Part shown: piece after piece, positions 1 through 12,482 of the stretch
Layout of the letters: every line of letters starts with the position of its first letter
Position numbering within the stretch: position 1 is the stretch's first letter
Source: Acidobacteriota bacterium
Lineage (GTDB): Bacteria; Acidobacteriota; UBA4820; DSQY01
Reading direction: 5' to 3'
Length of the DNA stretch: 12,482 bases
Assembly: GCA_049967655.1 (NCBI GenBank)
Contig: JBMFSH010000062.1
Coordinates: 1-12,482, forward strand
Notes under the pieces: generated by a model
Database searches by the model: none
Seen by the model: the letters and a program-made list of their open reading frames with translations, nothing else
What the model was told of the DNA's origin: nothing
Made by a program: the position numbers and the translations under genes

Positions 1-943
1 AGATCCCGCTTACCAAAAAGAGGGGCACGAGCATCACGAGGCTCCCGCTGAGAAACGCCAGCCCCAGGTTGAAAGCCACGCCCATCCCGTAGCCGAGCAG
101 GAGGGTTCGCCCATAGGACCAGCGGTCCGTGAGCATGCCCGCCGGGAAGGTGGCCAGCCCGCTGACGGCGTTGTGAAAGACGTAGAGCAGGACGGGGACG
201 GAGAGGAGCATGGCCCCGCCGCCCGAAGGAAGCCGCCTCGCGGCCTCCAGGATGAGGAAGGTCCGCGAGAAGTCGCCCATGCCGAAGAGCAGGACCGCCG
301 CCAGAAAGGCCCAATAGGCACTGGGCATCGCGGGGCGGCTCGGCCGCTCGGCGCGCCCTTCCGGGCGGCCCTCTTCGTGAACGAGGAAGACCACCGCGAG
401 AACCGCCCCCAGGCCCGGAATGAGCGTGATCAGAAAAATCCAGTGCAGGCGCAGGGACAGCCCCACGAACAGTGCCGCCAGGAGTGGCCCGACCACGGCG
501 CCGGCCATGTCGCCCGCCCGCTCCAGGCCGTAGGCTTTCCCGTACTGGGAGGGCTCCACGGCTTCGGCCATGAGGGCGTCCCTCAGCGGCCCCCTGAACC
601 CGCGCGCCATCCAGGCCACGGTTCTCAGGAGCACGAAGGGGATGGCCGATGCGGCGAAGGCGAAGGCCCCCACGCAGAGGGTGGTCACGAGGTAGGCGAA
701 GGCCACCGGGCCCTTCTTGCGGGCGATCCGCTGACCCACGAGGCCCGACCAGTACTTGGCACCCGAGGAGAAGACGTCCGCGATGCCTTCGATCCATCCA
801 AGGACCGTAGCCCCCAGCCCCAGGTGCTGGAGGTAGAGCGGCAGCACCGCCGTGGCCATCTCGTGGCTCGCGTCCGAGAGCAGGCTGGCCAGGGAGAAGC
901 CGAAGACCGTCGGGCTTTTCCAGGAACGGGCGGCGTCGGCCAT
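1..943 (-). CDS. MFS transporter (MJ1317-like type), 3' end runs off the window
   Basis: Not in the ORF track because no stop lies in the window. Hand translation from ATG at 943 (SD GGGAGG just upstream) gives 314 open codons: MADAARSWKSPTVFGFSLASLLSDASHEMATAVLPLYL...GWIEGIAD...RGFRGPLRDALMAEAVEPSQYGKAYGLERAGDMAGAVVGPLLA...FPAGMLTDRWSY. It has repeated hydrophobic helices and a motif-A-like GxLxDR in the C-terminal half. Confidence 0.9.
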   Translation of the reverse strand, partial: MADAARSWKSPTVFGFSLASLLSDASHEMATAVLPLYLQHLGLGATVLGWIEGIADVFSSGAKYWSGLVGQRIARKKGPVAFAYLVTTLCVGAFAFAASAIPFVLLRTVAWMARGFRGPLRDALMAEAVEPSQYGKAYGLERAGDMAGAVVGPLLAALFVGLSLRLHWIFLITLIPGLGAVLAVVFLVHEEGRPEGRAERPSRPAMPSAYWAFLAAVLLFGMGDFSRTFLILEAARRLPSGGGAMLLSVPVLLYVFHNAVSGLATFPAGMLTDRWSYGRTLLLGYGMGVAFNLGLAFLSGSLVMLVPLFLVSGI

Positions 944-989
944 CAAGTCCTCCCACGCGGCTCCGGCCATCCGGAGCCCGCAACATCCC

Positions 990-1036
990 TAGGAGTTATC
1001 AGCCATTCCGGCGCTTGACGGCGAACTCCATCGCCC
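990..1036 (-). promoter_or_regulatory. Fluoride riboswitch (crcB RNA motif) upstream of the MFS gene
   Basis: Minus strand reads GGCGATGGAGTTCGCC-GTC-AAGC-GCCGGAATGGC-TGATAACTCCTA. P1 is GGCGA/UCGCC, the pseudoknot is GGAGUU/AACUCC, and there is a small hairpin GCCG-GAA-UGGC. This matches the fluoride aptamer consensus GGCGAUGGAGUUCGCC...AAxCGCC...GCURAUGACUCCUA. Confidence 0.92.
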
Positions 1037-1041
1037 ACCCG

Positions 1042-1070
1042 ATCGTACCCAAAAAGTCGAACCCGGTCAA
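1042..1070 (-). promoter_or_regulatory. sigma70-type promoter for the riboswitch-MFS transcript
   Basis: TTGACC (1070-1065), 17-nt spacer, TACGAT (1047-1042). The predicted +1 falls at the first Gs of the aptamer. Confidence 0.8.
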
Positions 1071-1107
1071 CAGCTTACGAGGCTTCCCCCGCTTCCCTTC
1101 TCAAGTT

Positions 1108-1578
1108 CTAGCCCCGCAGCGTCGCCACCAGCCTCAGCGGTTCGGTCAACAGCTCCAGCGCCTCCACGATGCTGCGGCACACCACCTGGGCCGCCATCAG
1201 GCTCTCCGCCGCCGCCCCCTCCCTCTGCACCACGGCCACGCCCAGGGCGGCTTTGGCCAGCATGAGCCGGTCGTTCCGCCCGTTGCCGATGCACGCCGTG
1301 CGGTCGGGGTTCAGCCTCTCCACGTATTGGGCCTTGGCGTGAGCCTGGCCCGCCGATTCGAGGATGACCAGCTCGCAGGGAATCCCGTCGAGCTCGCGCT
1401 TGGCCTGGCCGAAGGTGTCCCCCGTGACCACGTGGATCTTCAGCCGGCGGGAGAGGCCGATCAACGCCTCCCGCACACCGGGCAGGAGGATCCCATCCTC
1501 CGCCAAGGTGCCGTTGAAATCGAGGACCAGGTGCTCCAACGCCCAGGAGCCCAAATCAGGTACGGTAATCTCGATCAT
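1108..1578 (-). CDS. HAD-superfamily hydrolase, soluble P-type ATPase-like (COG4087-type), copy 1
   Basis: 156 aa with motif I DFNGT, motif II TGDT, motif III Lys (AKA) and motif IV GNGRND, and no membrane segments. SD GGAGG is present and the start overlaps the enolase stop (ATGA). Confidence 0.9.
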   Translation of the reverse strand: MIEITVPDLGSWALEHLVLDFNGTLAEDGILLPGVREALIGLSRRLKIHVVTGDTFGQAKRELDGIPCELVILESAGQAHAKAQYVERLNPDRTACIGNGRNDRLMLAKAALGVAVVQREGAAAESLMAAQVVCRSIVEALELLTEPLRLVATLRG

Positions 1579-2873
1579 GGATGCCTCCGATGCCGTCTGG
1601 GGTTCGCGGCAGTCGGGCCAAACTCCGCCGTCGCTCCCAGCTCGGCCTCGATTTCCAAAAGGCGGTTGTATTTGCTGGTCCGCTCGCTCCGGCAGGCAGA
1701 CCCCGTCTTGATCTGGCCGCCGTCCATCGCCACCGCGAAATCGGCGAGGAAAGTGTCTTCCGTTTCGCCGGATCGGTGCGAGACCACGAAGGACCAGCCG
1801 GCCTCGCGGCAGAGTTCGATGGCCTGGATCGTCTCCGTGACGGTGCCGATCTGGTTCAGCTTGATGAGCGCCGCGTTGGTGGTCTTCTGAGAGATGCCCT
1901 TTTCGATGAGCACCGGATCGGTGCAGTAGATGTCGTCCCCGACGATCTGGATCCGGTCTCCGAGGAGCTCCGTCTGCGCCCGAAAACCCTCCCAGTCGTC
2001 CTCGGCCAGCCCATCCTCCAAGGAGACGATGGGGTAACTCTCCAGCCAGGACCGGTACAGAGCCGTCAGCTCCGCGCTGCTCTTGCGCCCCTGGCGCGAG
2101 CGCGACAAATGGTAACTTCCCCCTTCCCAGAAAGAGCTGGCCGCCGGGTCCAGGGCGATGGCGATCTCTCTACCGGCCGCGTACCCGGCCTTTTCGATGG
2201 CCTGCACGATGAATTCCACGGCCTCCTCGTTGCTGCGGAGGTCCGGCGCGAAGCCCCCCTCGTCCCCCACCGCCGTGGAGTACCCCCGCTCCTTCAACAA
2301 GGCCTTCAAAGCGTGAAAGGTCTCCACGCCGAAGCGTAGCGCCTCACCGAAGCTCGGGGCGCCCACCGGCACGATCATGAACTCCTGGAAGTCTACGCTG
2401 TTATCGGCGTGCCTGCCGCCGTTGAGGATGTTCATCATCGGCATGGGGAGGCGCCGGGCGCTTTCTCCCCCCAAGTGAGCGTAAAGAGGAAGTCCGGCGC
2501 TGGCCGCCCCTGCCCGCGCGACCGCCATAGAGAGGGCCAGCAGGGCATTGGCCCCCAGCCGCTCCTTGTTCGGCGTCCCGTCGAGATCGATCAGGAGCTG
2601 GTCCACGGCAGCCTGGTTCCCGACGGGCAATCCGGTCATGCGCGGCGCCAAGTAGTCGTTGATCTCCTCCACCACCGTCCGAACCCCTTTGCCTTCGTAC
2701 CGTTCCGGATCGCGGTCCCTTTTCTCGAAGGCCTCTCGGCTTCCGGTGGATGCCCCCGACGGCACGGAGGCGGAGACCCGCGTGCCGTCCTTCAGCTCCA
2801 GGAAGGCGCGGAGCGTGGGGTTGCCCCTGGAATCCAAGATTTCCAGCGCTCGAACGGTCCGGATTTCGCTCAT
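1575..2873 (-). CDS. eno: Enolase (phosphopyruvate hydratase)
   Basis: 432 aa with EILDSRGNPT, VPSGASTG, NGGRHADN, FQEFMI, VGDEGG, EDGLAEDDW, VGDD, IKLNQIGT, SHRSGETED and GQIKTG. SD GAGGAGG is present. Confidence 0.97.
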   Translation of the reverse strand: MSEIRTVRALEILDSRGNPTLRAFLELKDGTRVSASVPSGASTGSREAFEKRDRDPERYEGKGVRTVVEEINDYLAPRMTGLPVGNQAAVDQLLIDLDGTPNKERLGANALLALSMAVARAGAASAGLPLYAHLGGESARRLPMPMMNILNGGRHADNSVDFQEFMIVPVGAPSFGEALRFGVETFHALKALLKERGYSTAVGDEGGFAPDLRSNEEAVEFIVQAIEKAGYAAGREIAIALDPAASSFWEGGSYHLSRSRQGRKSSAELTALYRSWLESYPIVSLEDGLAEDDWEGFRAQTELLGDRIQIVGDDIYCTDPVLIEKGISQKTTNAALIKLNQIGTVTETIQAIELCREAGWSFVVSHRSGETEDTFLADFAVAMDGGQIKTGSACRSERTSKYNRLLEIEAELGATAEFGPTAANPRRHRRHP

Positions 2874-2897
2874 ATGGGCCTCCTCTTCCCACCTTCG

Positions 2898-3635
2898 TCA
2901 CCGCATGGTGAAGCTCTCGCCCAGGAAGACTCTCCTCGCTCCGGCATCGGCGGCCAGTTGCGCCGGCGTGCCCTCTGCGAGTATCCGCCCGTCGTGTATG
3001 ATGTAGGCTTCATCCGTGATCTTGAGGGTTTCCCGAACGTTGTGGTCGGTGATTACGACGCCGATGCCCTTTTCGCGGAGGGTGAGAATCAACGCCTGAA
3101 TGTCTTCCACCGCCATGGGGTCAATGCCGGCGAAGGGTTCGTCCAGGAGGAAGAACCTCGGTGAGAGAACCAGCGCCCTCGCCACCTCCACGCGGCGCCG
3201 CTCCCCGCCCGACAGCGAGAAGGCGGGGGACTTGGCTATGGCTCGAATATTCAGCTCCGTGAGGGCCGCTTCCATCCGATCCTCTTGCTCCCCTCGGCTC
3301 ATCTTGGTGTACTGCAGAACCGTCTTCAGGTTTTCCTCCACGGTCATTCTTCGGAAAATGGAGGGTTCCTGGGGAAGATAGGCAATGCCGGCGCGCGCCC
3401 TCTCGTGCATGGGCAGCGCGACGATGGATCGTCCATCCAGCAGGACGTCCCCCGAGGTGGGCGCTACCAGCCCCACGAGCATGTAGAAGGTCGTCGTCTT
3501 GCCGGCGCCGTTGGGGCCGAGAAGGCCCACCACGCGGCCGGAAGGGAAAGCCAGGTCCACCCCTCGAACCACCGTCCGGTGGCCGTACGCCTTCACCAGA
3601 CTCTTCGCGATGAGTTCATGGCGCGGGTGATCCAT
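2898..3635 (-). CDS. lptB: LptB-family (LPS export) ABC ATPase, orphan
   Basis: Probable start is ATG 3635 (MDHPRH..., 245 aa) rather than 3716, which overlaps usp. Motifs: Walker A GPNGAGKTTTFYM, Q-loop YLPQEPSIFRR, signature LSGGERRRVE, Walker B LLDEPFAGIDP, H-loop ITDHNVRETL, C-terminal VFLGESF. These are LptB hallmarks. Confidence 0.88.
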   Translation of the reverse strand: MDHPRHELIAKSLVKAYGHRTVVRGVDLAFPSGRVVGLLGPNGAGKTTTFYMLVGLVAPTSGDVLLDGRSIVALPMHERARAGIAYLPQEPSIFRRMTVEENLKTVLQYTKMSRGEQEDRMEAALTELNIRAIAKSPAFSLSGGERRRVEVARALVLSPRFFLLDEPFAGIDPMAVEDIQALILTLREKGIGVVITDHNVRETLKITDEAYIIHDGRILAEGTPAQLAADAGARRVFLGESFTMR

Positions 3636-3691
3636 GGCTTGCCTTCTCTTCTTGGTCCGTCCTCGCGGGCCAGCCCCCCGGCCCGTATCCT

Positions 3692-4117
3692 TCAGGGCAC
3701 CGCCAAGAAAGCGCACGGCGCTCTCAGCATCAGCATCGTGGCGGTGGAGCCCGCCTGATCTGGGAAGACATTGGAGTGTCCCGTCCGGCCTATCACGAGC
3801 AAGTCGAATCGGCCACGCTTCACGAGGCCGAGAATGGTGCGCACCTCGTGCCCATCCGCCGAGGTAACGATGACGTCCACGCCCGCGGCCATACCCCGCT
3901 GGCGGGCCTCCATGAGCAGGGAGCCGCTGAGCGCCATCTCGGCCGCGGAGGTCTCCGCCTCACTTTCCCCATCCCCCTCCGCACGCCTCGGTGAGGTCTC
4001 CTCCACCGTCACCGCGTGCAGCTCAGCCTCCAACGCCCGCGCCAATTCCAGGGCCACTGCGAAGGCGCGCCATGACGACTCGGAGCCATCCAACCCGACC
4101 AGAATCTTGCGGTACAT
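3692..4117 (-). CDS. Universal stress protein (UspA family)
   Basis: 141 aa with MYRKILVGLDGSESS at the N-terminus and DLLVIGRTGHS...GST...APC at the C-terminus. Strong SD AAGGAGGT. Confidence 0.92.
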   Translation of the reverse strand: MYRKILVGLDGSESSWRAFAVALELARALEAELHAVTVEETSPRRAEGDGESEAETSAAEMALSGSLLMEARQRGMAAGVDVIVTSADGHEVRTILGLVKRGRFDLLVIGRTGHSNVFPDQAGSTATMLMLRAPCAFLAVP

Positions 4118-4167
4118 TGCGACCTCCTTTGGGAACGCCAGTGCGCCTCAAACACGCATTGCATCGC

Positions 4168-6324
4168 TCATGGGCGAACCCAGTTAACCAGGAGCACCAC
4201 CAGCAGCGTGACCAGGACCGTCGCCGTGTAGAGGTTGACCCGGCCGGAGTGGTGGGGCCTCGCGATCAGTCCTGCGGCGCCGCGCACCAGGCGCGTGAGG
4301 GGGAGGAGAAAGAGCCTGTCCATGATGAAGGGCTCCCGCTGACTTCGCGTGAGGGCGGTGCGATAGTGCCCCTGCACGCTCTCGCGCGTGTCCTCCTGCG
4401 TGGTGGGGCGGAAGATCGCCTGGAACACCACGCGGACGGGATTGGAGAAGCCCGTCGCGCTGTAGGTCATGTCGGGAAAGAGGTGGCGCACGCCGCCGTC
4501 CCAGACCAGTCCCCGGCGCACGGTCCGCCCCCGCGTGGCCCAGCGAACGACGAGGGCGAGACCCGCCAAAAGCAGGACGAGCACCACGGCCGTGTAGGCC
4601 GTGGACATGGCGAAGACCACCGGGTTCTTCTCCCCGCCGGGATGGAGCACCACGAGGCCACGCCCCGGCAAGAGGCCGCGGCCCACCTGGGCCCCGATGG
4701 CGTGGAAGCCCTTCACGAAGCCGACTCCGTAGCGCGCGTCACCGGAGGGCCCCACGACGAAGAAGGGCGGAACCAGCTCCTCGGTGATGGACCCGTGGGC
4801 CAGGGGCGCCACGATCGTGTCCAGGGCCGGGATCACGTAGGTCGGCGCCAGGCCCAGGGCCAGGCAGAGAGCGGCCAGCAGCCCCATGGGCCAGAGCATG
4901 CTCCGGGGCAGTTCCTTCGCCTGCTCCGCCGGCCTGGAGCGGGCCATTCCCAGGAAGCTCATGCCGAAGGCCTTCACGAAGCAGGTCACGGCGAGGGCGG
5001 CCGTGAGAGCCAGGGCGGCCGCGCAGAGGGCGAAAACGACCTTGACGCCCGTGGCGCCGAACTGGGCGCTCTGCAGGAGCGTCTGGAGGGTGAGCCACTC
5101 GCTGACGAAGCCGTTGAAGGGCGGCAGCGCGGCGATGGAGAGCGCCCCCGCCAGGAAGAAGAGCCCCGTGTAGGGCATGGCGCGAAGCAGGCCCCCCATC
5201 CGGTTCATGTCCCGCGTCCCCGTCCGCAGGTCCACTCCTCCCGCCCCCAGGAAGAGGAGCGACTTGTAGAGCGAGTGGTTCATCATGTGGTAGAAGCCAA
5301 CGACAAAGCCCATGGCCGCCAGGACGGGCAGGTGAGAGGCGAGAAAGACCATGCCCGCTCCGAGGCCCACGGTCACGAGGCCCATGTTCTCGATGGAACT
5401 GTGGGCCAGCATGCGCTTCATGTCCGGGTCGATGGTGGCGTAGAGGATGCCGATGAGGGCGGTGAGGCTCCCCACGATGAGGACCACGAGCCCCTCCCCC
5501 ACGTGCCGCACGGGCAGGAGGTCCAGGTTGACCCGCACGATGCCGTAGATGCCGAGGTTCAGGATGCACCCGGACAGGAGCGCCGAGACGGGCGCAGGGG
5601 CCACGGGATGGGCCTTGGGCAGCCAGGAGCTTCCTGGAATGAGGCCCGCCTTCACGCTGAAGCCGAAAAAGGTGAGGAGAAAAACCGCCCAGGCGGCCCC
5701 CGGCCCGAGGCCCGGGCCGACCGTGCGCAGGGCGGTGAAATCCAGCCCCGAGGCGCCGAGACCTCCGATGAAGAGCACCCCCAGCGTGGCCGCCAGCACC
5801 CCCGCCTCGGTCATGGCGAGGAGCAGGTAGCCCGCGCGCACGTTCTCCTGCTTGCGGTTTTCGAAGCCCACCAGGAGCATGCAGAAGACCGCCATGAGGC
5901 GCCAGTCGAGCAGGAAGGTCACCAGGTCCGATCCCGCCAGGGTCAGGGCCGTGGCCAGCAGGAGCAGATGGTAGAGCACGCCATAGAGCCTGAGGCTGTA
6001 GCGGCCCTCGTAGCGCGCCAGATAGCCGGCCGAGTATATCGAAGCCGGGAGAAAGACCACGGCGGTCACGAGGAGGAAGAGCGCCGAGAGGCGGTCCATT
6101 CCGAAACCGAGCGTGCCCAGGACCGGCAGGCGCAGGAGGGGGAAGGCGAAGCCCGCGCCGCTCCCCAGCGTGGCTCCGGAGGCCGCCATCAGCGCCCCCG
6201 AGGCGAGGGAGGCGGTCCAGGCGAGCCCCGTCGGTACGCGCCGGTCGGGCAGGAGCGCGCTGAGAAGGGCGCCCGCTCCCGCCAAGAGGACGAAGAGGAG
6301 AAAGAATCCGGCGGCGGGGCTCAC
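4168..6324 (-). CDS. hyfB: HyfB/HycC-like antiporter-type membrane subunit (NuoL/M/N-MrpA/D family) of an Ehr complex
   Basis: True start is most likely GTG 6324, which overlaps the small-subunit stop (GTGA) and has SD GGGGAGG; 718 aa. Motifs: GFSVKAGLIP..WLPKAHPVAPAPVSALLSG, KRMLAHSSIENMG, NHSLYKSLLFLGAG, LPPFNGFVSEW, CFVKAFG, WDGG...MTYSATGFSNP. Confidence 0.9.
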   Translation of the reverse strand: MSPAAGFFLLFVLLAGAGALLSALLPDRRVPTGLAWTASLASGALMAASGATLGSGAGFAFPLLRLPVLGTLGFGMDRLSALFLLVTAVVFLPASIYSAGYLARYEGRYSLRLYGVLYHLLLLATALTLAGSDLVTFLLDWRLMAVFCMLLVGFENRKQENVRAGYLLLAMTEAGVLAATLGVLFIGGLGASGLDFTALRTVGPGLGPGAAWAVFLLTFFGFSVKAGLIPGSSWLPKAHPVAPAPVSALLSGCILNLGIYGIVRVNLDLLPVRHVGEGLVVLIVGSLTALIGILYATIDPDMKRMLAHSSIENMGLVTVGLGAGMVFLASHLPVLAAMGFVVGFYHMMNHSLYKSLLFLGAGGVDLRTGTRDMNRMGGLLRAMPYTGLFFLAGALSIAALPPFNGFVSEWLTLQTLLQSAQFGATGVKVVFALCAAALALTAALAVTCFVKAFGMSFLGMARSRPAEQAKELPRSMLWPMGLLAALCLALGLAPTYVIPALDTIVAPLAHGSITEELVPPFFVVGPSGDARYGVGFVKGFHAIGAQVGRGLLPGRGLVVLHPGGEKNPVVFAMSTAYTAVVLVLLLAGLALVVRWATRGRTVRRGLVWDGGVRHLFPDMTYSATGFSNPVRVVFQAIFRPTTQEDTRESVQGHYRTALTRSQREPFIMDRLFLLPLTRLVRGAAGLIARPHHSGRVNLYTATVLVTLLVVLLVNWVRP

Positions 6325-7079
6325 GGCGCGGCCTCCCCCAGCGTCTCCCGGGCGCCATCGGACGTCTTCGCCCGGCCCGAGAGGAGCAGCAAGCCATGCA
6401 GGATGGCTAGAGGCGGCGGCGGGCAGCCGGGCACCTCCACGTCCACGGGCAACACGCTGCCCACGCCGCCCGCGCTGGCGAAGCTCGGCCCGAACAGGCA
6501 GCCGGTCAGGGCGCAGGTACCCACCGCCATCACGCGGCGCGGGGTGGGCATGGCCTCGTAGGCCTTGAGCAGCGGCATGCGCATGGCCTGCGTCACGGGG
6601 CCCGCCACGAGGAGCACGTCGGCGTGGCGCGGCGTTGGAGTGAGGAAGAGCCCCAGCCGGTGCATGTTGTAATAGGGTTTGTTGAGCTGCTTGATTTCGC
6701 TCAGGCAGGCATCGCAGGCGCCGGCGTCCACGACGCGGATGTGGAGCGAGTGGTCGAAGCCGCGGCCGAAGAGGGGGGCGTCGCCCGGCCCCGTCTGCCG
6801 CGCCCACTCGTACCCGCCCTCCCAGGGCACCGGATTGGGACCCGATGCGCATCGGAGGCAATGGATGCAGCGGCGCGGGTCGGCCGTGAGGCGTGTCCCG
6901 CTCGTTTCGAGCGCCCCGGCGGGGCAGGAAAGGGCCGCCCCCTCGGCGTCGGACGGGGAGGGCCAGCGGCTCTCGGCCGCCGGGAGACCCGGCGTCACGC
7001 CCGCAGCCTCTTCGGGACGCCGGGGATAGCGCGTGCTCTTCACCCCCGTCCTCAGCCCCTGGATGATCCATTTGCTCAT
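6321..7079 (-). CDS. hyfI: NuoB/HycG/HyfI-like Fe-S small subunit with N-terminal ferredoxin-like (HycF/HyfH-like) segment
   Basis: C-terminal domain has GACDAC, DVLLVAGPVT, VGTCA and PGCPP (four cluster cysteines). N-terminal segment has TRYP, CPAGAL and CIHCLRC. Confidence 0.88.
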   Translation of the reverse strand: MSKWIIQGLRTGVKSTRYPRRPEEAAGVTPGLPAAESRWPSPSDAEGAALSCPAGALETSGTRLTADPRRCIHCLRCASGPNPVPWEGGYEWARQTGPGDAPLFGRGFDHSLHIRVVDAGACDACLSEIKQLNKPYYNMHRLGLFLTPTPRHADVLLVAGPVTQAMRMPLLKAYEAMPTPRRVMAVGTCALTGCLFGPSFASAGGVGSVLPVDVEVPGCPPPPLAILHGLLLLSGRAKTSDGARETLGEAAP

Positions 7080-7088
7080 GGTGGGCTC

Positions 7089-8687
7089 CTAGCGGTCCCC
7101 TTCGGCCGTGGAGAGGCCGAAGGTGGCCATGATGATCGGGAAATCCTGGAAGGCGAAGCGCTCCGCCGCCAGGTGGAAGCCGTGCCAGTTGGTGAAGGAG
7201 GGGGTGGTCAGGCGGAAGCGCGCCACGCGGCCCCCCTCGTCCAGCCGAACCCAGTGGAAGGCCGCGCCGCGAGGCGCCTCAGCCCAGCCGAGCGCTTCGC
7301 CGGAGCGCAGGGGCACCTCCACGCGCACGGGACCGCCGGGCAGCCGTTCGGCCCCCTCCCGGATCAGGCGCGCCGAGGCGAGGGCCTCGGCGATGAGCAC
7401 CCTCAGGCGTGCGTAGCCGTCCCCCTCCTCCTCCACCGCGATCTCGGGTTTCAGAAGGGAGCCGTAGGGGCCGTAGGGCAAGTCCATCCGCGAATCCTCG
7501 GCCACGCCGGAAGCCCGGGCGATGGGCCCCACCAGGCCGAAGTGCCGGGCCTGCCGTTCGCTCACCAGCCCCACCTGCTCCAGACGGTCGAGGAAGCTTC
7601 CGGAGAAGCGGAGCCTCCGGGAGAGCCCGCCGAGCCCCCCGGCGAGGCGCTCCACGCCGCCCGCCAGCACTTGCACCTCCTCGTTCGTCCAGTCCCGGGC
7701 CATGCCGCCCGGCACCACCTGGCCATAGAGGTAGCGGTGGCCCGCCCATGCTCCCGCCAGACGCAGGGCCTCCTCCTCCAGGATGTCCGCCTGGCTTGAG
7801 GCCACCGTCATGCCCGTGGAGTGGATGATGTCGGAGAGGGCGGCCAAGTGGTGGCGGAAGCGTTCGAACTCCGCGAGGAGAGCCCTCAAGAGCTGCGCCC
7901 TCGGAGGGATGTCCGCTCCGGCGATGCGCTCCACGGCCTGACAGAAGGCCCACGCGTGGGCGATGGCCGAGGTGCCGGTGAAGCGTTCGGCCATGAGCAG
8001 GACCTTCGCGGGCTCCTCCCCCTCGGCCAGCTTCTCGACGCCGCGGTACTTGTAGAAGAGGCGCGGGATGGTTCGCGCCACGTCCTCTCCCACCGTCTCC
8101 AGGAGGAAGTGCGAGGCCTGGGCCGTGTCCGAGAAGATGGGCCCCACGGGCATGGCGAAGGCGCCAGGGGCCTGAACGATGCGCACGGGCCGCCACTGCG
8201 GGTCCACCTCCCGGGCGGTGTAGGGCACGCGGGCGTTGAAGCTCCATCGCATGGGGTTGACGCCCTCGGGCCACTCCTCGTGCAGGATGAACTCGCCCAG
8301 GCGGGGGTGGCCCGTGAAGGTCAGGCCGAAAAGATCCTCCGTCTCCCGTTCGTGCCAGTCCGCGCCGTGCACCGCATCGCTGATGCTGGGAAGGCTCGTG
8401 TGCTGAAGCGGCATTTCGACCAACACGTGCACCCACAGGGGCTCCCGTCCCCAGAATAGGGTGCGCAGCCGCCAGCCCTCTTCCCGCTCCTCCGTCACCA
8501 GCGTGGCGAAGCGATAGTGCCTTTCGCCCGCGAGCCAGGCGCAGAGATCGGGGAGGAGGGCGGGATCGCACGCCAGGAGCAAACCGTCGGGAGGAAGCGG
8601 GGAGACCCGCAGGGCATCGCCCCACCGGGCCGCCGCTTCGGCATCGAGGGAGAGGGCGGAGGGAATTTTCTGGGCGGGCGTCATCAT
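7089..8687 (-). CDS. hyfG: HycE/HyfG-like large subunit (fused NuoC/NuoD-like) lacking NiFe ligands, i.e. Ehr large subunit
   Basis: 532 aa. NuoC-like part: WHERETEDLFGLTFTGHP. NuoD-like part: VGPI, RLFYKYRGVEKLAEG, EFERFRHH, GPIARASG, GDGYARL, EAPRG, PSFTNW. The L1 site reads ERFTGTS and the C-terminus reads DFPIIMATFGLSTAEGDR, so neither CxxC is present. Confidence 0.9.
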   Translation of the reverse strand: MMTPAQKIPSALSLDAEAAARWGDALRVSPLPPDGLLLACDPALLPDLCAWLAGERHYRFATLVTEEREEGWRLRTLFWGREPLWVHVLVEMPLQHTSLPSISDAVHGADWHERETEDLFGLTFTGHPRLGEFILHEEWPEGVNPMRWSFNARVPYTAREVDPQWRPVRIVQAPGAFAMPVGPIFSDTAQASHFLLETVGEDVARTIPRLFYKYRGVEKLAEGEEPAKVLLMAERFTGTSAIAHAWAFCQAVERIAGADIPPRAQLLRALLAEFERFRHHLAALSDIIHSTGMTVASSQADILEEEALRLAGAWAGHRYLYGQVVPGGMARDWTNEEVQVLAGGVERLAGGLGGLSRRLRFSGSFLDRLEQVGLVSERQARHFGLVGPIARASGVAEDSRMDLPYGPYGSLLKPEIAVEEEGDGYARLRVLIAEALASARLIREGAERLPGGPVRVEVPLRSGEALGWAEAPRGAAFHWVRLDEGGRVARFRLTTPSFTNWHGFHLAAERFAFQDFPIIMATFGLSTAEGDR

Positions 8688-8691
8688 GGCA

Positions 8692-10137
8692 TCACCTCGC
8701 CAGCGCCGTCGCGGCCAGGCGCAGAAGGTGTTCGACGGAGGCGGGCAGACTCACGCCCAGCAGCACCACCGGCACGAAGGCCACGACAAGCGCCAGGGCG
8801 TAACTCCTGGGAAAGGCCGGCACGGGCCCCGTGGCGGTGGCCTTGCCGAACACCATGCGGGTCACGTGGTAGAGGACCGCGCAGAAGGCGCCCACCATGC
8901 AGAGCGTGAGCAGGGCCACGGGGAGAAAGCGGCGGTCCACGGCGCCGCCCTGGAGGATGGACAGCTCGCTCAGGAAGAGGGCGAAGGGAGGGGCGCCGGT
9001 CACCGCCAAGGCTCCCGCGAGGAGCGCCGCTCCCGCCAGGGGCGAGCGGCGGCCGAGCCCCTGCACCGCGGCGATCTCCGTCGTGCCGGCGAAGAGCAGG
9101 GCCGCGCCGGCGGCGAAGAAGCCGAAGGGCTTGGCGAGCGCGTGGTTCATGAGCTGGTAGACAGAGCCATATCCGGCCGCGCCGCCCAGCCCGGCCGCCG
9201 TGAGGATGATCCCCGCGTTCTCGATCGTGGAGTAGGCGAAGAGGCGTTTGAGGTCCTTCACCTGGACGAGCAGGAGCGCCGCGCCCACCGCGGAGAGCAG
9301 GCCGAAGGCGAGGAGCCACCGGCCGGCCCCGTCGCCCGCCTTGCCTGGAAAGAGCGGCAGAAGGCGCACGATCACGTAGGGGAGCGTCGTGGTCTCCACC
9401 ACCGACAGGAGGGCGCAGATGGGCACGGGGGCTTGGCTGTAAACGTCCGGCAGCCAGGAGTGAAAGGGGACGAGGGCGGCCTTGGTGCCGTAGCCCACGA
9501 GCATGAAGAGAAAGGCCGTCTTCACGAGCAACGGGGGCATGGCGCCCTCCGCCGCGGCGAGGCCGGACCAGGTGAAGTCCTCCGCGCCCCCCAGGCGCAT
9601 GGCCCAGTAGAGCACCAGCACGCCGAAGAGAGCCAGCGCCGCCCCCATGGAAGTGAGGATGGCGTATTTCCAAGCCGCCTCCAGGGCCGCCGTGCTCCGG
9701 TCGAAGCTGACGAGGAAGATGGAGAGCAGGGTCGTGAGCGCCACGGCGATCCACACCAGCGCGACGTTGGAGAGCAGCGGCACCGCCAACACGGGGGCCA
9801 GGAAGAGATTGAAACGGACGAAGTAGCGCCTGACCCGGCCCGCCTCCATGGGCTGAGTGGCCCTCCGCGTAAAACCGATGGAGAAGAGGGCCGCGGTGAA
9901 CCCCGCGAAGGCGCACAAGACCAGCACCAGCGCGCCGAATGCGTCGCACGAGACCCAGCCCGGCAGGGCCGCGACCGTGGCCCCCGTGGCGCAGCGGCCC
10001 GCCACGGCGAGGGCCAAGAGGAGTTGCAGAGCCGTCGCGAGCGCCGTTACGCCGCCCGGGATGGTGCGATGGGGGGAGGGCCAGAGCGCCAGGGCCGCGG
10101 CGATGAGCGGAATAATCAGAATGAACCAGAGCACCAT
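8692..10137 (-). CDS. hyfF: HyfF-like antiporter-type membrane subunit
   Basis: 481 aa polytopic membrane protein with ALEAAWKY, GYGTKAALVPFHSWLPD, DLKRLFAYSTIEN, NHALAK and GAPPFALFLSE. SD GAGGAG is present. Confidence 0.9.
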   Translation of the reverse strand: MVLWFILIIPLIAAALALWPSPHRTIPGGVTALATALQLLLALAVAGRCATGATVAALPGWVSCDAFGALVLVLCAFAGFTAALFSIGFTRRATQPMEAGRVRRYFVRFNLFLAPVLAVPLLSNVALVWIAVALTTLLSIFLVSFDRSTAALEAAWKYAILTSMGAALALFGVLVLYWAMRLGGAEDFTWSGLAAAEGAMPPLLVKTAFLFMLVGYGTKAALVPFHSWLPDVYSQAPVPICALLSVVETTTLPYVIVRLLPLFPGKAGDGAGRWLLAFGLLSAVGAALLLVQVKDLKRLFAYSTIENAGIILTAAGLGGAAGYGSVYQLMNHALAKPFGFFAAGAALLFAGTTEIAAVQGLGRRSPLAGAALLAGALAVTGAPPFALFLSELSILQGGAVDRRFLPVALLTLCMVGAFCAVLYHVTRMVFGKATATGPVPAFPRSYALALVVAFVPVVLLGVSLPASVEHLLRLAATALAR

Positions 10138-10141
10138 CGCC

Positions 10142-10825
10142 TCACTCCTCTCTGAGATCGGTCAGGTCGGCCACGGAGGTCGAGCCGGCCCGCTCGTGGA
10201 GCTTCCTCGTCAGAAGCCCCATGACCAGGGCGATGACGAGCACGTCAAAGGCCGCGGCCAGTTCGGCGAAGAGCGGCAGGTCGGGGGCGATGGCCACCCC
10301 CGCGAAAAAGGCACCGTTCTCCATGGAAAGAAGCCCGAGCACCTGTGGCAGGGCCTCCCGGCGGACGGTCACGGTGAAGGCCCCGATGAGCAGGGCTGCC
10401 AGTCCGATCGGCAGGTTGACCCCCACCTGCCCCAAGGGCGCGGCCGCCCGCAGCGGCGCGGCCAGGAAATAGGCGAGGATGGCGAGTCCCAGCGCGATGA
10501 GCAGGGAGGTCGGGATGTTCAGCACCTGCGAGATTTCTCGGCGGGCCACCACGGCCTCGCTGGCCGTCCGCCTGAGCAGCCAGGGAATGAGGAGTGCCTT
10601 GGCAACGATCGTGATGGCCGCCACGGCATAGAGGTGGTCCGAGGCCGCCTCGTGGCCCAGCAGCGCGGCCGAGGCGGCGAGCAGCACGGACTGCCCCGCG
10701 AAGAGGGCCACGCAGTCCAGGACCTGCCGCGTGGCCACCAGGCCGAAGGTGGCCAGGAGGAACAGGCCGGCGGCCAGCAGGTTGAGCTCGTTGACCAGGG
10801 TCACGCTGATGTGGGGATCGGGCAC
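10142..10825 (-). CDS. hyfE: HyfE-like membrane subunit (NuoK-like C-terminus)
   Basis: 227 aa with KALLIPWLL and QVLGLLSMENG...ELAAAFDV...LTDLRE. GTG start with SD GGAGG. Confidence 0.88.
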   Translation of the reverse strand: MPDPHISVTLVNELNLLAAGLFLLATFGLVATRQVLDCVALFAGQSVLLAASAALLGHEAASDHLYAVAAITIVAKALLIPWLLRRTASEAVVARREISQVLNIPTSLLIALGLAILAYFLAAPLRAAAPLGQVGVNLPIGLAALLIGAFTVTVRREALPQVLGLLSMENGAFFAGVAIAPDLPLFAELAAAFDVLVIALVMGLLTRKLHERAGSTSVADLTDLREE

Positions 10826-10835
10826 GACCAGCCTC

Positions 10836-11786
10836 CTACAGTTCCATGAGCCGAATCAGCAGGGCCGCCACGCAGACCACGAAGGCCGCCCCGAGAAATT
10901 CGGTGATCCGAAAGAGCCGCAGCTTGGCGAAGGAGGACTCAACCCCCACGAGAGCCAGGATGCACAGCACCATCTTGAGGAGCACCAGGGGGATGGCGGC
11001 GAGCACGGCCGTAACGCTCTGGCTGGAGGCCAGGCCCCAGGGTGCCACGAGGACGTTAAGGAAGATGCAGAGCAGGACGAAGAACTTCATGGCCCCGCCC
11101 CACTTCATGAGGGCCGCCCCGCGCCCCGAGTACTCCAGCCCCTTGGACTCGTCGATCATGGCCAGCTCGAAATGGCCCGACGGGTTGTCCACCGGCAGCC
11201 GTCCAGTCTCCGCCAGGATCAGCATGAAGAAGGCGATCAGGAGCAGGACGTGGGCAGGGTCGAAGAAGTTGGCCGGAGGATGGACCCAGCGCTGCTGGAC
11301 GATGTAGGGGATCGTGGAGCCCGCCACGACGGAGACCGTGAAAAAAACGATCATGAACACCGGCTCGGCCAGGAAGCCCACCATCCGCGTCCGGCTCGCC
11401 CCCATGGGGCCGTACGGGTTGGCCGTATCGATCGCCGCGAGGGTGGCGAAGAAGCCGCCGAGGGCCAGGATGAAGCCGCCCCCCAGCATGTCACCCATGA
11501 AGGCGAAGAAGAGCGGGTAGTCGGTGAGCACGGGGATGAGCAGCGCCACGAAGAGCGGCGCTACGAAGACCACATAGGGCGTGACGCGGAAGATCCATGT
11601 GCTCTCGCGGGAGACCACTTCGTCCTTGTGGAAGAGCTTCCAGAGGTCGTAGTAGGGCTGAAAGACGCTTGGCCCCCGGTGGGATTGGAGGCGCTCCTTC
11701 AGCTTGGCGCTAATCCCCGCCATGAGAGGGGCGAAGAGGAGCACCACCAGCGCCTGGAGGACGTTGTAGAGAAGGTGCGCGATCAC
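10836..11786 (-). CDS. hyfC: HyfC/HycD-like membrane subunit (NuoH/ND1 family)
   Basis: Probable start is GTG 11786 after SD GAGGGGG (316 aa); the upstream in-frame extension lies in the riboswitch leader. Motifs: LQSHRGPSVFQPYYDLWKLFHK, GASR...AEP, AETGRLPVD...EL...LEYSG, ESSFAKLRLFRI. Confidence 0.9.
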   Translation of the reverse strand: MIAHLLYNVLQALVVLLFAPLMAGISAKLKERLQSHRGPSVFQPYYDLWKLFHKDEVVSRESTWIFRVTPYVVFVAPLFVALLIPVLTDYPLFFAFMGDMLGGGFILALGGFFATLAAIDTANPYGPMGASRTRMVGFLAEPVFMIVFFTVSVVAGSTIPYIVQQRWVHPPANFFDPAHVLLLIAFFMLILAETGRLPVDNPSGHFELAMIDESKGLEYSGRGAALMKWGGAMKFFVLLCIFLNVLVAPWGLASSQSVTAVLAAIPLVLLKMVLCILALVGVESSFAKLRLFRITEFLGAAFVVCVAALLIRLMEL

Positions 11787-11913
11787 GGCGCACCCCCCTC
11801 TTTCGCCAGCAGGGGAATCCCCGATGCTCTTGGTGCGGTTTTTTCGATCAGTCCGGCTGCAGGCCACATACAAAGCTCCCATCGGCGGCCCGGCGGGAGC
11901 TTTAAGGAGGCAC

Positions 11914-11951
11914 AAAAAACTCCCGACGGGGCCACTTCACCTGTCAGGAGT
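11914..11951 (-). terminator. Intrinsic terminator forming the riboswitch expression platform
   Basis: RNA ACUCCUGACAGG-UGAAGUGGC-CCCGUCGGGAGU followed by a U tract (six U at 11919-11914). The 5' arm is the aptamer's pseudoknot strand, so terminator and ligand-bound fold are mutually exclusive (ON switch). Confidence 0.85.
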
Positions 11952-11993
11952 CATTAGCCTCGGCGAGGCGTTTCGCGGGGGGACTCCATCCCC
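11945..11993 (-). promoter_or_regulatory. Fluoride riboswitch (crcB RNA motif) upstream of the Ehr operon
   Basis: Minus strand reads GGGGATGGAGTCCCC-CCGCG-AAAC-GCCTCGCCGAGGC-TAATGACTCCTG. P1 is GGGGA/UCCCC, which covaries with the other copy (GGCGA/UCGCC). The pseudoknot is GGAGU/ACUCC and the canonical GCUAAUGACUCC is present. Confidence 0.94.
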
Positions 11994-12001
11994 TCGACGG
12001 C

Positions 12002-12030
12002 ATCTTAGGATCTTTGGCCGCTCAAGTCAA
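12002..12030 (-). promoter_or_regulatory. sigma70-type promoter for the riboswitch-Ehr operon
   Basis: TTGACT (12030-12025), 17-nt spacer, TAAGAT (12007-12002), 8 nt upstream of the aptamer. Confidence 0.8.
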
Positions 12031-12066
12031 GAGGAGTGCGGCCCGCAGCCTCCCGGCTTCGGGCCC

Positions 12067-12482
12067 TTACCCTCGGAGGGTGGCCACGAGGCGCAGGGGT
12101 TCGACGAGCAGCTCCAGGGCCTCGACGATGGTCCGGCAGACCACGTCGGCGGCCGCCAGGCACTCCGCCGAGGCCCCCTCCTTCTGGAGGACCGCCACTC
12201 CGAGGGCGGCGCTGGCCAACATCAGGCGGTCGTTCCGCCCGTTGCCGATGCAGGCCGTGCGCCGCGGCCCCAGGCGCTCGACGGTGCGGGCCTTCGCCTC
12301 GGCCTGGCCGGCGGCGTCGAGGATGACCAGCTCGCACGGAATCCCCGCGAGCTCCTGCCTCGCCCTGCCGAAGGTGTCCCCCGTCACCACGTGGAGCTGG
12401 AGTCGCTGGGACAGCGCGCCCAGGGCCTCCCGCACCCCCGGCAGGAGGGCGCCGTCCTCGGCGAGGGTCCCGTTGAAGTCGA
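12067..12482 (-). CDS. HAD-superfamily hydrolase, soluble P-type ATPase-like, copy 2 (5' end outside window)
   Basis: The frame is open to the window edge: DFNGTLAEDGALLPGVREAL...TGDT...GNGRND...LVATLRG*. The ORF-track start at 12435 is an internal GTG. Confidence 0.9.
   Translation of the reverse strand, partial: DFNGTLAEDGALLPGVREALGALSQRLQLHVVTGDTFGRARQELAGIPCELVILDAAGQAEAKARTVERLGPRRTACIGNGRNDRLMLASAALGVAVLQKEGASAECLAAADVVCRTIVEALELLVEPLRLVATLRG

Follow-up and report, generated by a model that had tools for sequence, protein, structure and literature searches.

Regulons listed for the crcB riboswitch include mutS, K+/Cl- transport and formate hydrogen lyase genes (Weinberg 2010, PMC2864571), and in a 2024 review the occurrence of formate hydrogen lyase under a fluoride riboswitch was read as fermentation (PMC11139923). 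A riboswitch-led island with a universal stress protein gene (usp), a spare enolase and crcB has been described as GI3 of Enterobacter cloacae, in which the island enzymes were reported to add resistance beyond crcB (PMC5533749). The association of fluoride riboswitches with usp, HAD, enolase and 'formate hydrogen lyase' genes has thus been published before. Here, we have analyzed a stretch of 12,482 nucleotides from an Acidobacteriota bacterium (GenBank contig JBMFSH010000062.1; hereafter the window), which is the entire contig C62 of a 3.14-Mb source assembly (99% complete) whose closest related records are Acidobacteria. The window carries a fluoride-defence island of a known kind, with two fluoride riboswitches, spare enzymes and a nickel-free complex of the Ehr type. 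On the basis of their sequences, the six hyf-like genes of this island are best assigned to an Ehr complex and not to a hydrogenlyase, and the Ehr clade to which they belong is likely to be near-exclusively under fluoride-riboswitch control. The six genes are:

10836..11786, minus strand: HyfC/NuoH-like membrane subunit, the first gene (PF00146)
10142..10825, minus strand: HyfE-like small membrane subunit (NF008556, E 3e-21, below the cut-off)
8692..10137, minus strand: HyfF-like Mrp antiporter-like subunit (PF00361), with Ala133 in place of the Glu of transmembrane helix 5 (TM5) in the alignment
7089..8687, minus strand: HyfG-like large subunit (EhrL) without the four nickel-binding Cys (PF00346 and PF00329)
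6321..7079, minus strand: HyfI/NuoB-like Fe-S subunit (PF01058), with an N-terminal ferredoxin-like Cys set; Cys 52/71/74/77 and 122/125/189/219
4168..6324, minus strand: HyfB-like Mrp antiporter-like subunit (PF00361; NF005086, 543 bits), with Arg142 in place of the TM5 Glu in the alignment

The assignment to Ehr was made because a large subunit without nickel ligands is found together with an Fe-S small subunit, two Mrp-like subunits and a NuoH-like membrane subunit. The original definition of Ehr was reportedly given in a 2013 paper. The definition applied here follows PMC6349859 and PMC10284858. At the Cys positions of HycE from Escherichia coli, the large subunit of the window has T, S, S and E, and the C-terminal extension is missing. 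Homologs with at least 45% identity that passed a length filter were aligned with E. coli HycE and HyfG; all 75 of these large subunits had none of the four nickel cysteines and had also lost the C-terminal extension, whereas both E. coli controls keep all four. No formate dehydrogenase was found in the genome, in which the sole match to PF00384 (molybdopterin family) was NuoG in the nuo operon. Relative to E. coli hydrogenases 3 and 4 (Hyc/Hyf; PDB 7Z0S) and complex I, the folds are homologous by sequence and the residues of the antiporter-like axis are largely kept, but the window complex is without the nickel site, HycB/HyfA, a maturation protease in the locus, and an NADH or formate input module. 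An Atlas search returned PF00146 clusters only.

Known Ehr complexes resemble the one in the window in having six Hyf-like subunits, two of them Mrp-like, and no nickel ligands. The window complex belongs, however, to a separate clade with the gene order C-E-F-G-I-B, its own motifs at the former nickel site, a near-invariant HyfC and fluoride-riboswitch control. The order CEFGIB was observed in 54 of 56 complete loci of the clade, whereas B stands first (B-C-E-F) in 53 of 61 controls. Its motifs are ERF[SAT]G..A.AH and FGLS.AE.DR, and the common Ehr motifs of the control set (GD[TS] and NKSFN) did not occur. In quick IQ-TREE searches of the large subunit (29 of the 75 rows in the first tree and 12 in the second), the clade formed its own branch with a Shimodaira-Hasegawa-like approximate likelihood ratio (SH-aLRT) support of 99, within a branch of support 100 that also held other Ehr sequences and one Cys-bearing row. 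It should be noted that the clade was delimited by protein identity, independently of the presence of a riboswitch. A large subunit of genome G033 (L254:8734-10395) has the four nickel cysteines and an NKSF motif resembling that of Ehr, lacks the C-terminal extension, and branches at the base of Ehr. The source genome itself (G000) has a second, ordinary Ehr operon on contig C14 (L129:3317-10523), which is led by a helix-turn-helix/PTS-EIIA gene and is free of riboswitches.

The regulatory elements of the window are:

983..1044, minus strand: fluoride riboswitch aptamer 1 (RF01734, 45.6 bits, E 4e-10), heading the MFS gene and, across the contig break, crcB
11938..12002, minus strand: fluoride riboswitch aptamer 2 (RF01734, 44.3 bits, E 1e-9), heading the Ehr block
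1042..1070, minus strand: sigma70-like promoter before riboswitch 1 (TTGACC-17-TACGAT), a consensus match only
12002..12030, minus strand: sigma70-like promoter before riboswitch 2 (TTGACT-17-TAAGAT), a consensus match only
11914..11952, minus strand: predicted intrinsic terminator, with a 10-bp stem and U6 in the minimum-energy fold (z -2.78)

The original prediction of two units, each made of a promoter and a fluoride riboswitch, is borne out by the Rfam covariance model, as both aptamers score above its gathering cut-off of 34 bits. No further fluoride riboswitch was found in a genome-wide search. The only two sigma70-like promoters in the window lie directly ahead of the riboswitches, against a chance expectation of 0.6. 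Among 23 copies from the source genome and its relatives, including both window copies, P1 was paired in 100% and the pseudoknot in 99.3% of cells. By folding, the predicted terminator takes up the 3' pseudoknot strand of aptamer 2, and switch 1 is predicted to pair with the ribosome-binding site of the MFS gene. Both are predicted to be ON switches, that of aptamer 2 being transcriptional: fluoride would favor aptamer 2 over the competing terminator and thereby allow transcription of the ten genes behind it, and would free the ribosome-binding site behind aptamer 1. An aptamer-competing terminator of this sort was detected by a crude test in 10 of 59 operon heads, and terminator-like matches over the window stood at chance level (6 versus 6.6 expected).

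To characterize the linkage, the best 80 of 101 related loci from a genome collection were used, which span Acidobacteriota, deltaproteobacterial lineages, Nitrospirota, Planctomycetota, Pseudomonadota and Bacillota. A model built from 23 Rfam hits identified 129 switches in 66 of the 80 loci. In 59 of the 67 loci with at least 400 bp ahead of hyfC, a riboswitch was present within 500 bp of hyfC on the same strand; among the remaining eight, six had a switch one or two genes further up, one was on a contig that ends too soon, and one (Bacillota) had none. Confirmation at the Rfam gathering level was obtained for 17 hits in six of seven re-scanned loci. On the other hand, the genome's other Ehr type gave no riboswitch hit in 81 loci (755 kb), and 34 further control loci gave one clear hit, which is the sole member of this clade among them, and one weak hit that fails Rfam. 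In total, none of the 56 control Ehr operons with a visible head had a riboswitch, although Fisher tests on such counts overstate the difference since related genomes are not independent. A sister lineage with 36-38% identity showed the same gene order and a switch in all four loci with a visible head, had crcB directly after hyfB in three of five loci, and formed one branch with the clade (support 99). These findings suggest that this Ehr clade is probably controlled almost exclusively by fluoride riboswitches. Among 151 genomes of Acidobacteriota, 4 carried the clade. Sister Ehr lineages with the order C-E-F-G-I were observed in L376, L379-L382 and L069:1067-6017, and in L069 two divergent Ehr operons flank one riboswitch region. 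In L380:6055-6393 (G638), the crcB gene behind a sister-type Ehr has an internal TAG stop, and an intact crcB is present elsewhere in G638.

Compared with published fluoride regulons, the RNA family is the same and the labels hydrogenlyase-like, enolase, HAD, Na+/H+ antiporter and MutS-like recur in the 80 loci. The difference is that the 'hydrogenlyase' here would be a nickel-free Ehr of one clade without formate dehydrogenase, which the fermentation reading misfits. With regard to E. cloacae GI3, no Ehr appears in the part of that report drawn on here (PMC5533749), and neither ppaC nor gpmA was seen in the window island, which has Ehr, lptB, HAD, MFS, DUF190-CBS and dynamin-like genes instead.

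The further genes of the island are:

3692..4117, minus strand: universal stress protein (PF00582)
2898..3635, minus strand: orphan second LptB, the ATPase of the lipopolysaccharide-export ATP-binding cassette (ABC) transporter (TIGR04406, 344.5 bits, cut-off 240)
1575..2873, minus strand: second enolase, catalytic motifs intact (TIGR01060, 609 bits)
1108..1578, minus strand: HAD-fold phosphatase copy 1, right flank of the block (weak PF00702; DFNGT, TGDT and GNGRND motifs)
12067..12482, minus strand: HAD-fold soluble P-type-ATPase-like phosphatase copy 2, left flank, 5' end off the contig (weak PF00702; DFNGT)
1..943, minus strand: MFS transporter truncated by the contig end (PF07690), likely start at 943 after GGAGG, alternative start at 970

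The proposal of a fluoride-response island that collects Ehr, usp, a spare enolase, HAD and MFS is backed by the switches, the gene spacing and the related loci. Ten same-strand genes follow one another in the order hyfC-E-F-G-I-B, usp, lptB, eno and HAD; the block, proposed to be of about 10.7 kb with overlapping or abutting genes, measures 10,679 bp, with intergenic distances from -4 to 56 bp. The MFS gene was confirmed downstream of the other riboswitch, as had been suggested. The enolase and lptB genes are indeed extra copies, since housekeeping versions were located on contigs C16 (enolase) and C15 (lptB, with lptC/A and rpoN). The island LptB is 69% identical to the latter and sits outside that context. 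The island enolase is 55% identical to the housekeeping copy and 55-73% identical to full-length enolases of other fluoride loci, and is thus a spare enolase that resembles those of other islands more than it does the housekeeping one. What had been overlooked is the second HAD copy (12067->12482), with 81% amino-acid identity to copy 1. The idea of one putatively co-induced system that gathers all these partners is supported for this island, but the gene mix varies among the 80 related loci, in which the conserved unit is the riboswitch with the six Ehr genes. Neighbors in these loci were MutS-domain-V (23), DUF190-CBS (18), dynamin-like (17), MFS (17), enolase (16), crcB (12), usp (8), Na+/H+ antiporter (6), HAD (2) and true lptB (2) genes, and on these counts lptB, HAD, usp and eno were rejected as fixed partners of the complex.

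An extra lptB occurred in 2 of 19 family genomes. A frameshifted sister lptB lies behind its own fluoride riboswitch in another genus (L111:1-1208, G010), and a distant orphan lptB lies two genes behind a riboswitch in a Nitrospirota locus (L034:9275-11479); one further locus labelled lptB was dropped, as its product is a 36% identical ABC ATPase. The extra lptB is a recurrent minor passenger and not part of the core. ATPases with MutS domain V only (∼515 amino acids, mostly in tandem pairs; for example, L024:19344-20882 and L076:750-2306) account for the 23 loci mentioned above. They are often directly behind their own riboswitch, Pfam shows domain V only, and their 2010 label was 'DNA repair'. 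The bacterial dynamin-like GTPases (for example, L128:9182-10882 on contig C4 of the source genome and L025:1648-3585) are in some loci also directly behind a riboswitch, and one could guess that they serve membrane repair under fluoride stress. Formate-tetrahydrofolate ligase (5/80; L028:655-2436) and cyclopropane fatty-acid synthase (5/80; L045:96-980) also recur in fluoride loci.

It had also been noted that no canonical exporter was in view. This is true of the window itself, in which neither crcB nor CLC-F is present; however, the window ends within the MFS gene, and a search of the flanks and the genome for crcB/eriC found crcB on contig C4 (C4:140250-140708; TIGR00494, 94.2 bits versus a cut-off of 80.45), ∼1.5 kb beyond the end of the MFS gene. 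MFS residues 1-323 are encoded on C62 and residues 326-414 at the end of C4, where they are followed by two hypothetical genes, a HEAT/zinc-ribbon gene, crcB, DUF190-CBS and the dynamin-like gene. The join of C62 and C4 is inferred from the related contig L005 as the sole bridge (HyfG 95% identical), on which the MFS gene is followed by two hypothetical genes, a HEAT gene, crcB and DUF190-CBS. C4 and C62 have no direct overlap, and the 98 terminal bases of C4 align with nothing; an assembly of a hot-spring run likewise breaks near this point. An exporter-free island was thus rejected: the apparent lack of an exporter is an assembly artefact, because the contig breaks inside the MFS gene before crcB. 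The genome's single CLC was also rejected as CLC-F, as it has GLEGP and GLFFP in place of the signature motifs, which are given as GNNLI/GMGLI, GREGT/V and GEVTP (PMC11139923).

In two genomes of the same genus, a HAD gene that is 95-96% identical to copy 2 in nucleotides is followed by a switch-1-like riboswitch and crcB genes. Because these genomes hold a single HAD, the switch and crcB genes without the Ehr block, the Ehr-usp-lptB-eno block between the two HAD copies may have been gained by insertion or lost as one unit. No tRNA gene was found at the island edges in five loci inspected, and in a plasmid search (66 records) the best listed match had 34% identity, with no clade member among the 40 listed. 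In L005, the island is preceded by a pair of ATPase genes of the AAA_14/DUF4143 type and by an incomplete third copy of HAD (L005:1107-4134), which were not found in the assembly of the source genome. Long contig segments from the hot-spring run together span most of the island, and three mine-drainage runs cover parts of it; no RNA run was listed among the public sequencing runs that hold island sequence.

With regard to function, the reading that we rank first, at about even odds, is that fluoride induces the Ehr complex to act as a redox-driven cation pump, which would compensate for the protons brought in with HF (hydrogen fluoride). HF would enter the cell and F- would exit through Fluc, a cycle that imports protons and drains the proton-motive force. 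The complex, which has no encoded donor module, might receive its electrons from a soluble carrier, for which ferredoxin is a guess; their passage over two Fe-S sites would power the export of cations by the two Mrp-like subunits. The additional copies of enolase, HAD and LptB would serve to titrate the inhibition caused by metal fluorides. Such a pump, a proposition that could go either way, is suggested by homology, by co-operonic crcB and by the link between fluoride and pH homeostasis stated in a review (PMC11139923). Cooperation of the complex with Fluc would fit the position of crcB immediately behind hyfB in five loci. Genes linked to pH also occur in the same regulons, namely Na+/H+ antiporters in 6/80 and cyclopropane synthase in 5/80 loci.

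Residues of the classes that form the proton-pumping axis of complex I, that is, the TM7 Lys, the TM12 Glu and acidic residues (PMC10212512), are largely retained. The TM7 Lys is kept in all 75 HyfB and all 79 HyfF rows, and the TM12 Glu in 75/75 HyfB and 76/79 HyfF rows, a few rows from short contigs being the other paralog. The acidic residues that are common to other Ehr HyfC proteins and both Cys sets of HyfI are also retained. Several observations weigh against a pump. The TM5 Glu, which is kept in 67 of 68 HyfB and 67 of 70 HyfF control rows, is replaced by Arg in 12/75 HyfB rows and by Thr, Ser or Ala in 17/79 HyfF rows, these substitutions being common to an acidobacterial-planctomycete subclade that includes the window. 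Its loss in both antiporter-like subunits is ill-suited to ordinary proton pumping and hard to square with it. In addition, the electron donor and acceptor are putative, the pump function being assigned from sequence, and a helper pump would be expected alongside Fluc, yet 27 of 50 carriers show neither crcB nor CLC-F.

This last point comes from a census of 50 carrier genomes, covering 50 of the 80 loci, and it bears on another, more doubtful possibility: that the Ehr complex itself exports fluoride, in a redox-driven or cation-coupled manner, as a third class of bacterial fluoride exporter. In this form, a fluoride-switched, energy-driven exporter with an anion path in the near-invariant NuoH-like subunit would replace Fluc/CLC-F in many soil, sediment and hot-spring bacteria, which we consider only tentatively. 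crcB was found in just 23/50 carriers, although the single-copy control SmpB was detected in 47/50, among them each of the 27 in which crcB was not found. In these 27, no CLC match (50 loci fetched) had GREGT/V or GEVTP, and 13 of the 27 were also without the island-type MFS that was searched. In Alphaproteobacteria, crcB was present in 6/20 carriers, in contrast to 53/60 genomes of a family sample and 15/20 relatives of one carrier. Within a group formed by G205 and its first 15 listed relatives, all five crcB-less genomes had a fluoride-type Ehr, compared with two of the 11 with crcB, although the small size (1.8-2.1 Mb) of three crcB-less carriers near G205 may mean that these genomes are incomplete. 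G192, a single contig of 7.2 Mb, has four riboswitches, all in the island, and neither exporter. HyfC is the most invariant subunit, with 145/316 columns at least 95% invariant among 68 homologs (41/316 in controls), compared with 7-25% near-invariant columns in the other four subunits compared. It is 75% identical across phyla versus 52-54% for those four, and its residues 82-170 form a Gly/Phe-rich near-invariant stretch. Export would explain the crcB deficit, the invariant HyfC and Arg142 of HyfB better than a pump does, but would leave open why crcB is so frequently present as well: 46% of carriers have retained it, in many cases within the same operon, whereas only ∼3% of strains hold both Fluc and CLC-F according to a review (PMC11139923). 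The carrier rate of 23/50 over all phyla also equals the Acidobacteriota background (74/151 genomes, with G045 counted only there), and four of four tested crcB-less close relatives of G192 are without the clade, so that genomes manage without both. Most of the census genomes are incomplete, and related genomes do not count as independent cases. Moreover, we know of no anion transport by Mrp-like subunits. A family-wide co-occurrence test, in which three candidates were scored per genome, matched 2 of 401 genomes, which is too few. The MFS was rejected as a substitute exporter, with no clear pattern (14/27 crcB-less and 9/23 crcB-bearing genomes) in a search whose query was the MFS of another locus, 29% identical to that of the window. 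G205 (L326, L330, L334, L337, L340-L343) has a genome of 2.7 Mb with eight riboswitch matches, five of them over the cut-off, and no crcB/CLC-F; the genes behind its riboswitches include those for cyclopropane synthase, DUF211, a NUDIX hydrolase and a PQQ-domain protein.

An unlikely explanation is a redox valve, for example of the ferredoxin:quinone type, through which the complex would divert electrons once glycolysis is blocked by fluoride; transport of ions would then be secondary, or lost in the subclade. The intact Fe-S ligands next to two replaced TM5 Glu residues are consistent with it, as are the neighboring genes for enolase (16/80) and formate-tetrahydrofolate ligase (5/80). However, none of the four membrane subunits has been lost, the charges at TM7 and TM12 are retained, the carriers span lineages from deltaproteobacterial to alphaproteobacterial, and the families present in at least four loci include no recurrent oxidoreductase that could be a partner. 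Finally, a true formate hydrogenlyase that aids a switch to fermentation under fluoride, as suggested by the database label 'formate hydrogenlyase subunit 5' for large-subunit homologs, by E. coli HycE as the nearest solved structure and by the reading in PMC11139923, is highly improbable and already contradicted by the loss of all nickel cysteines and of the C-terminal extension in 75/75 sequences and by NuoG as the sole PF00384 match.

What is new here is the recognition of what this nickel-free clade related to complex I is, and that its control by fluoride is probably near-exclusive; many of the genomes that carry it show no known exporter. No paper naming a fluoride-controlled Ehr clade was found in the literature searched, which covered few subscription papers, and the supplements of Baker 2012 may name the subunits. 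These results join two questions, namely the fluoride riboswitches over 'formate hydrogen lyase' genes noted in 2010 and the role of Ehr, which was stated to be unknown in 2023. From the riboswitch linkage, one Ehr clade gains a specific candidate inducer together with a simple, testable phenotype: minimum inhibitory concentration of fluoride, internal pH and F- efflux. If the complex restores the proton gradient, it would represent a new layer of fluoride tolerance that could benefit defluorinating strains; as an exporter of F-, it would be, to our knowledge, the first known anion pump in the complex I/Mrp superfamily.

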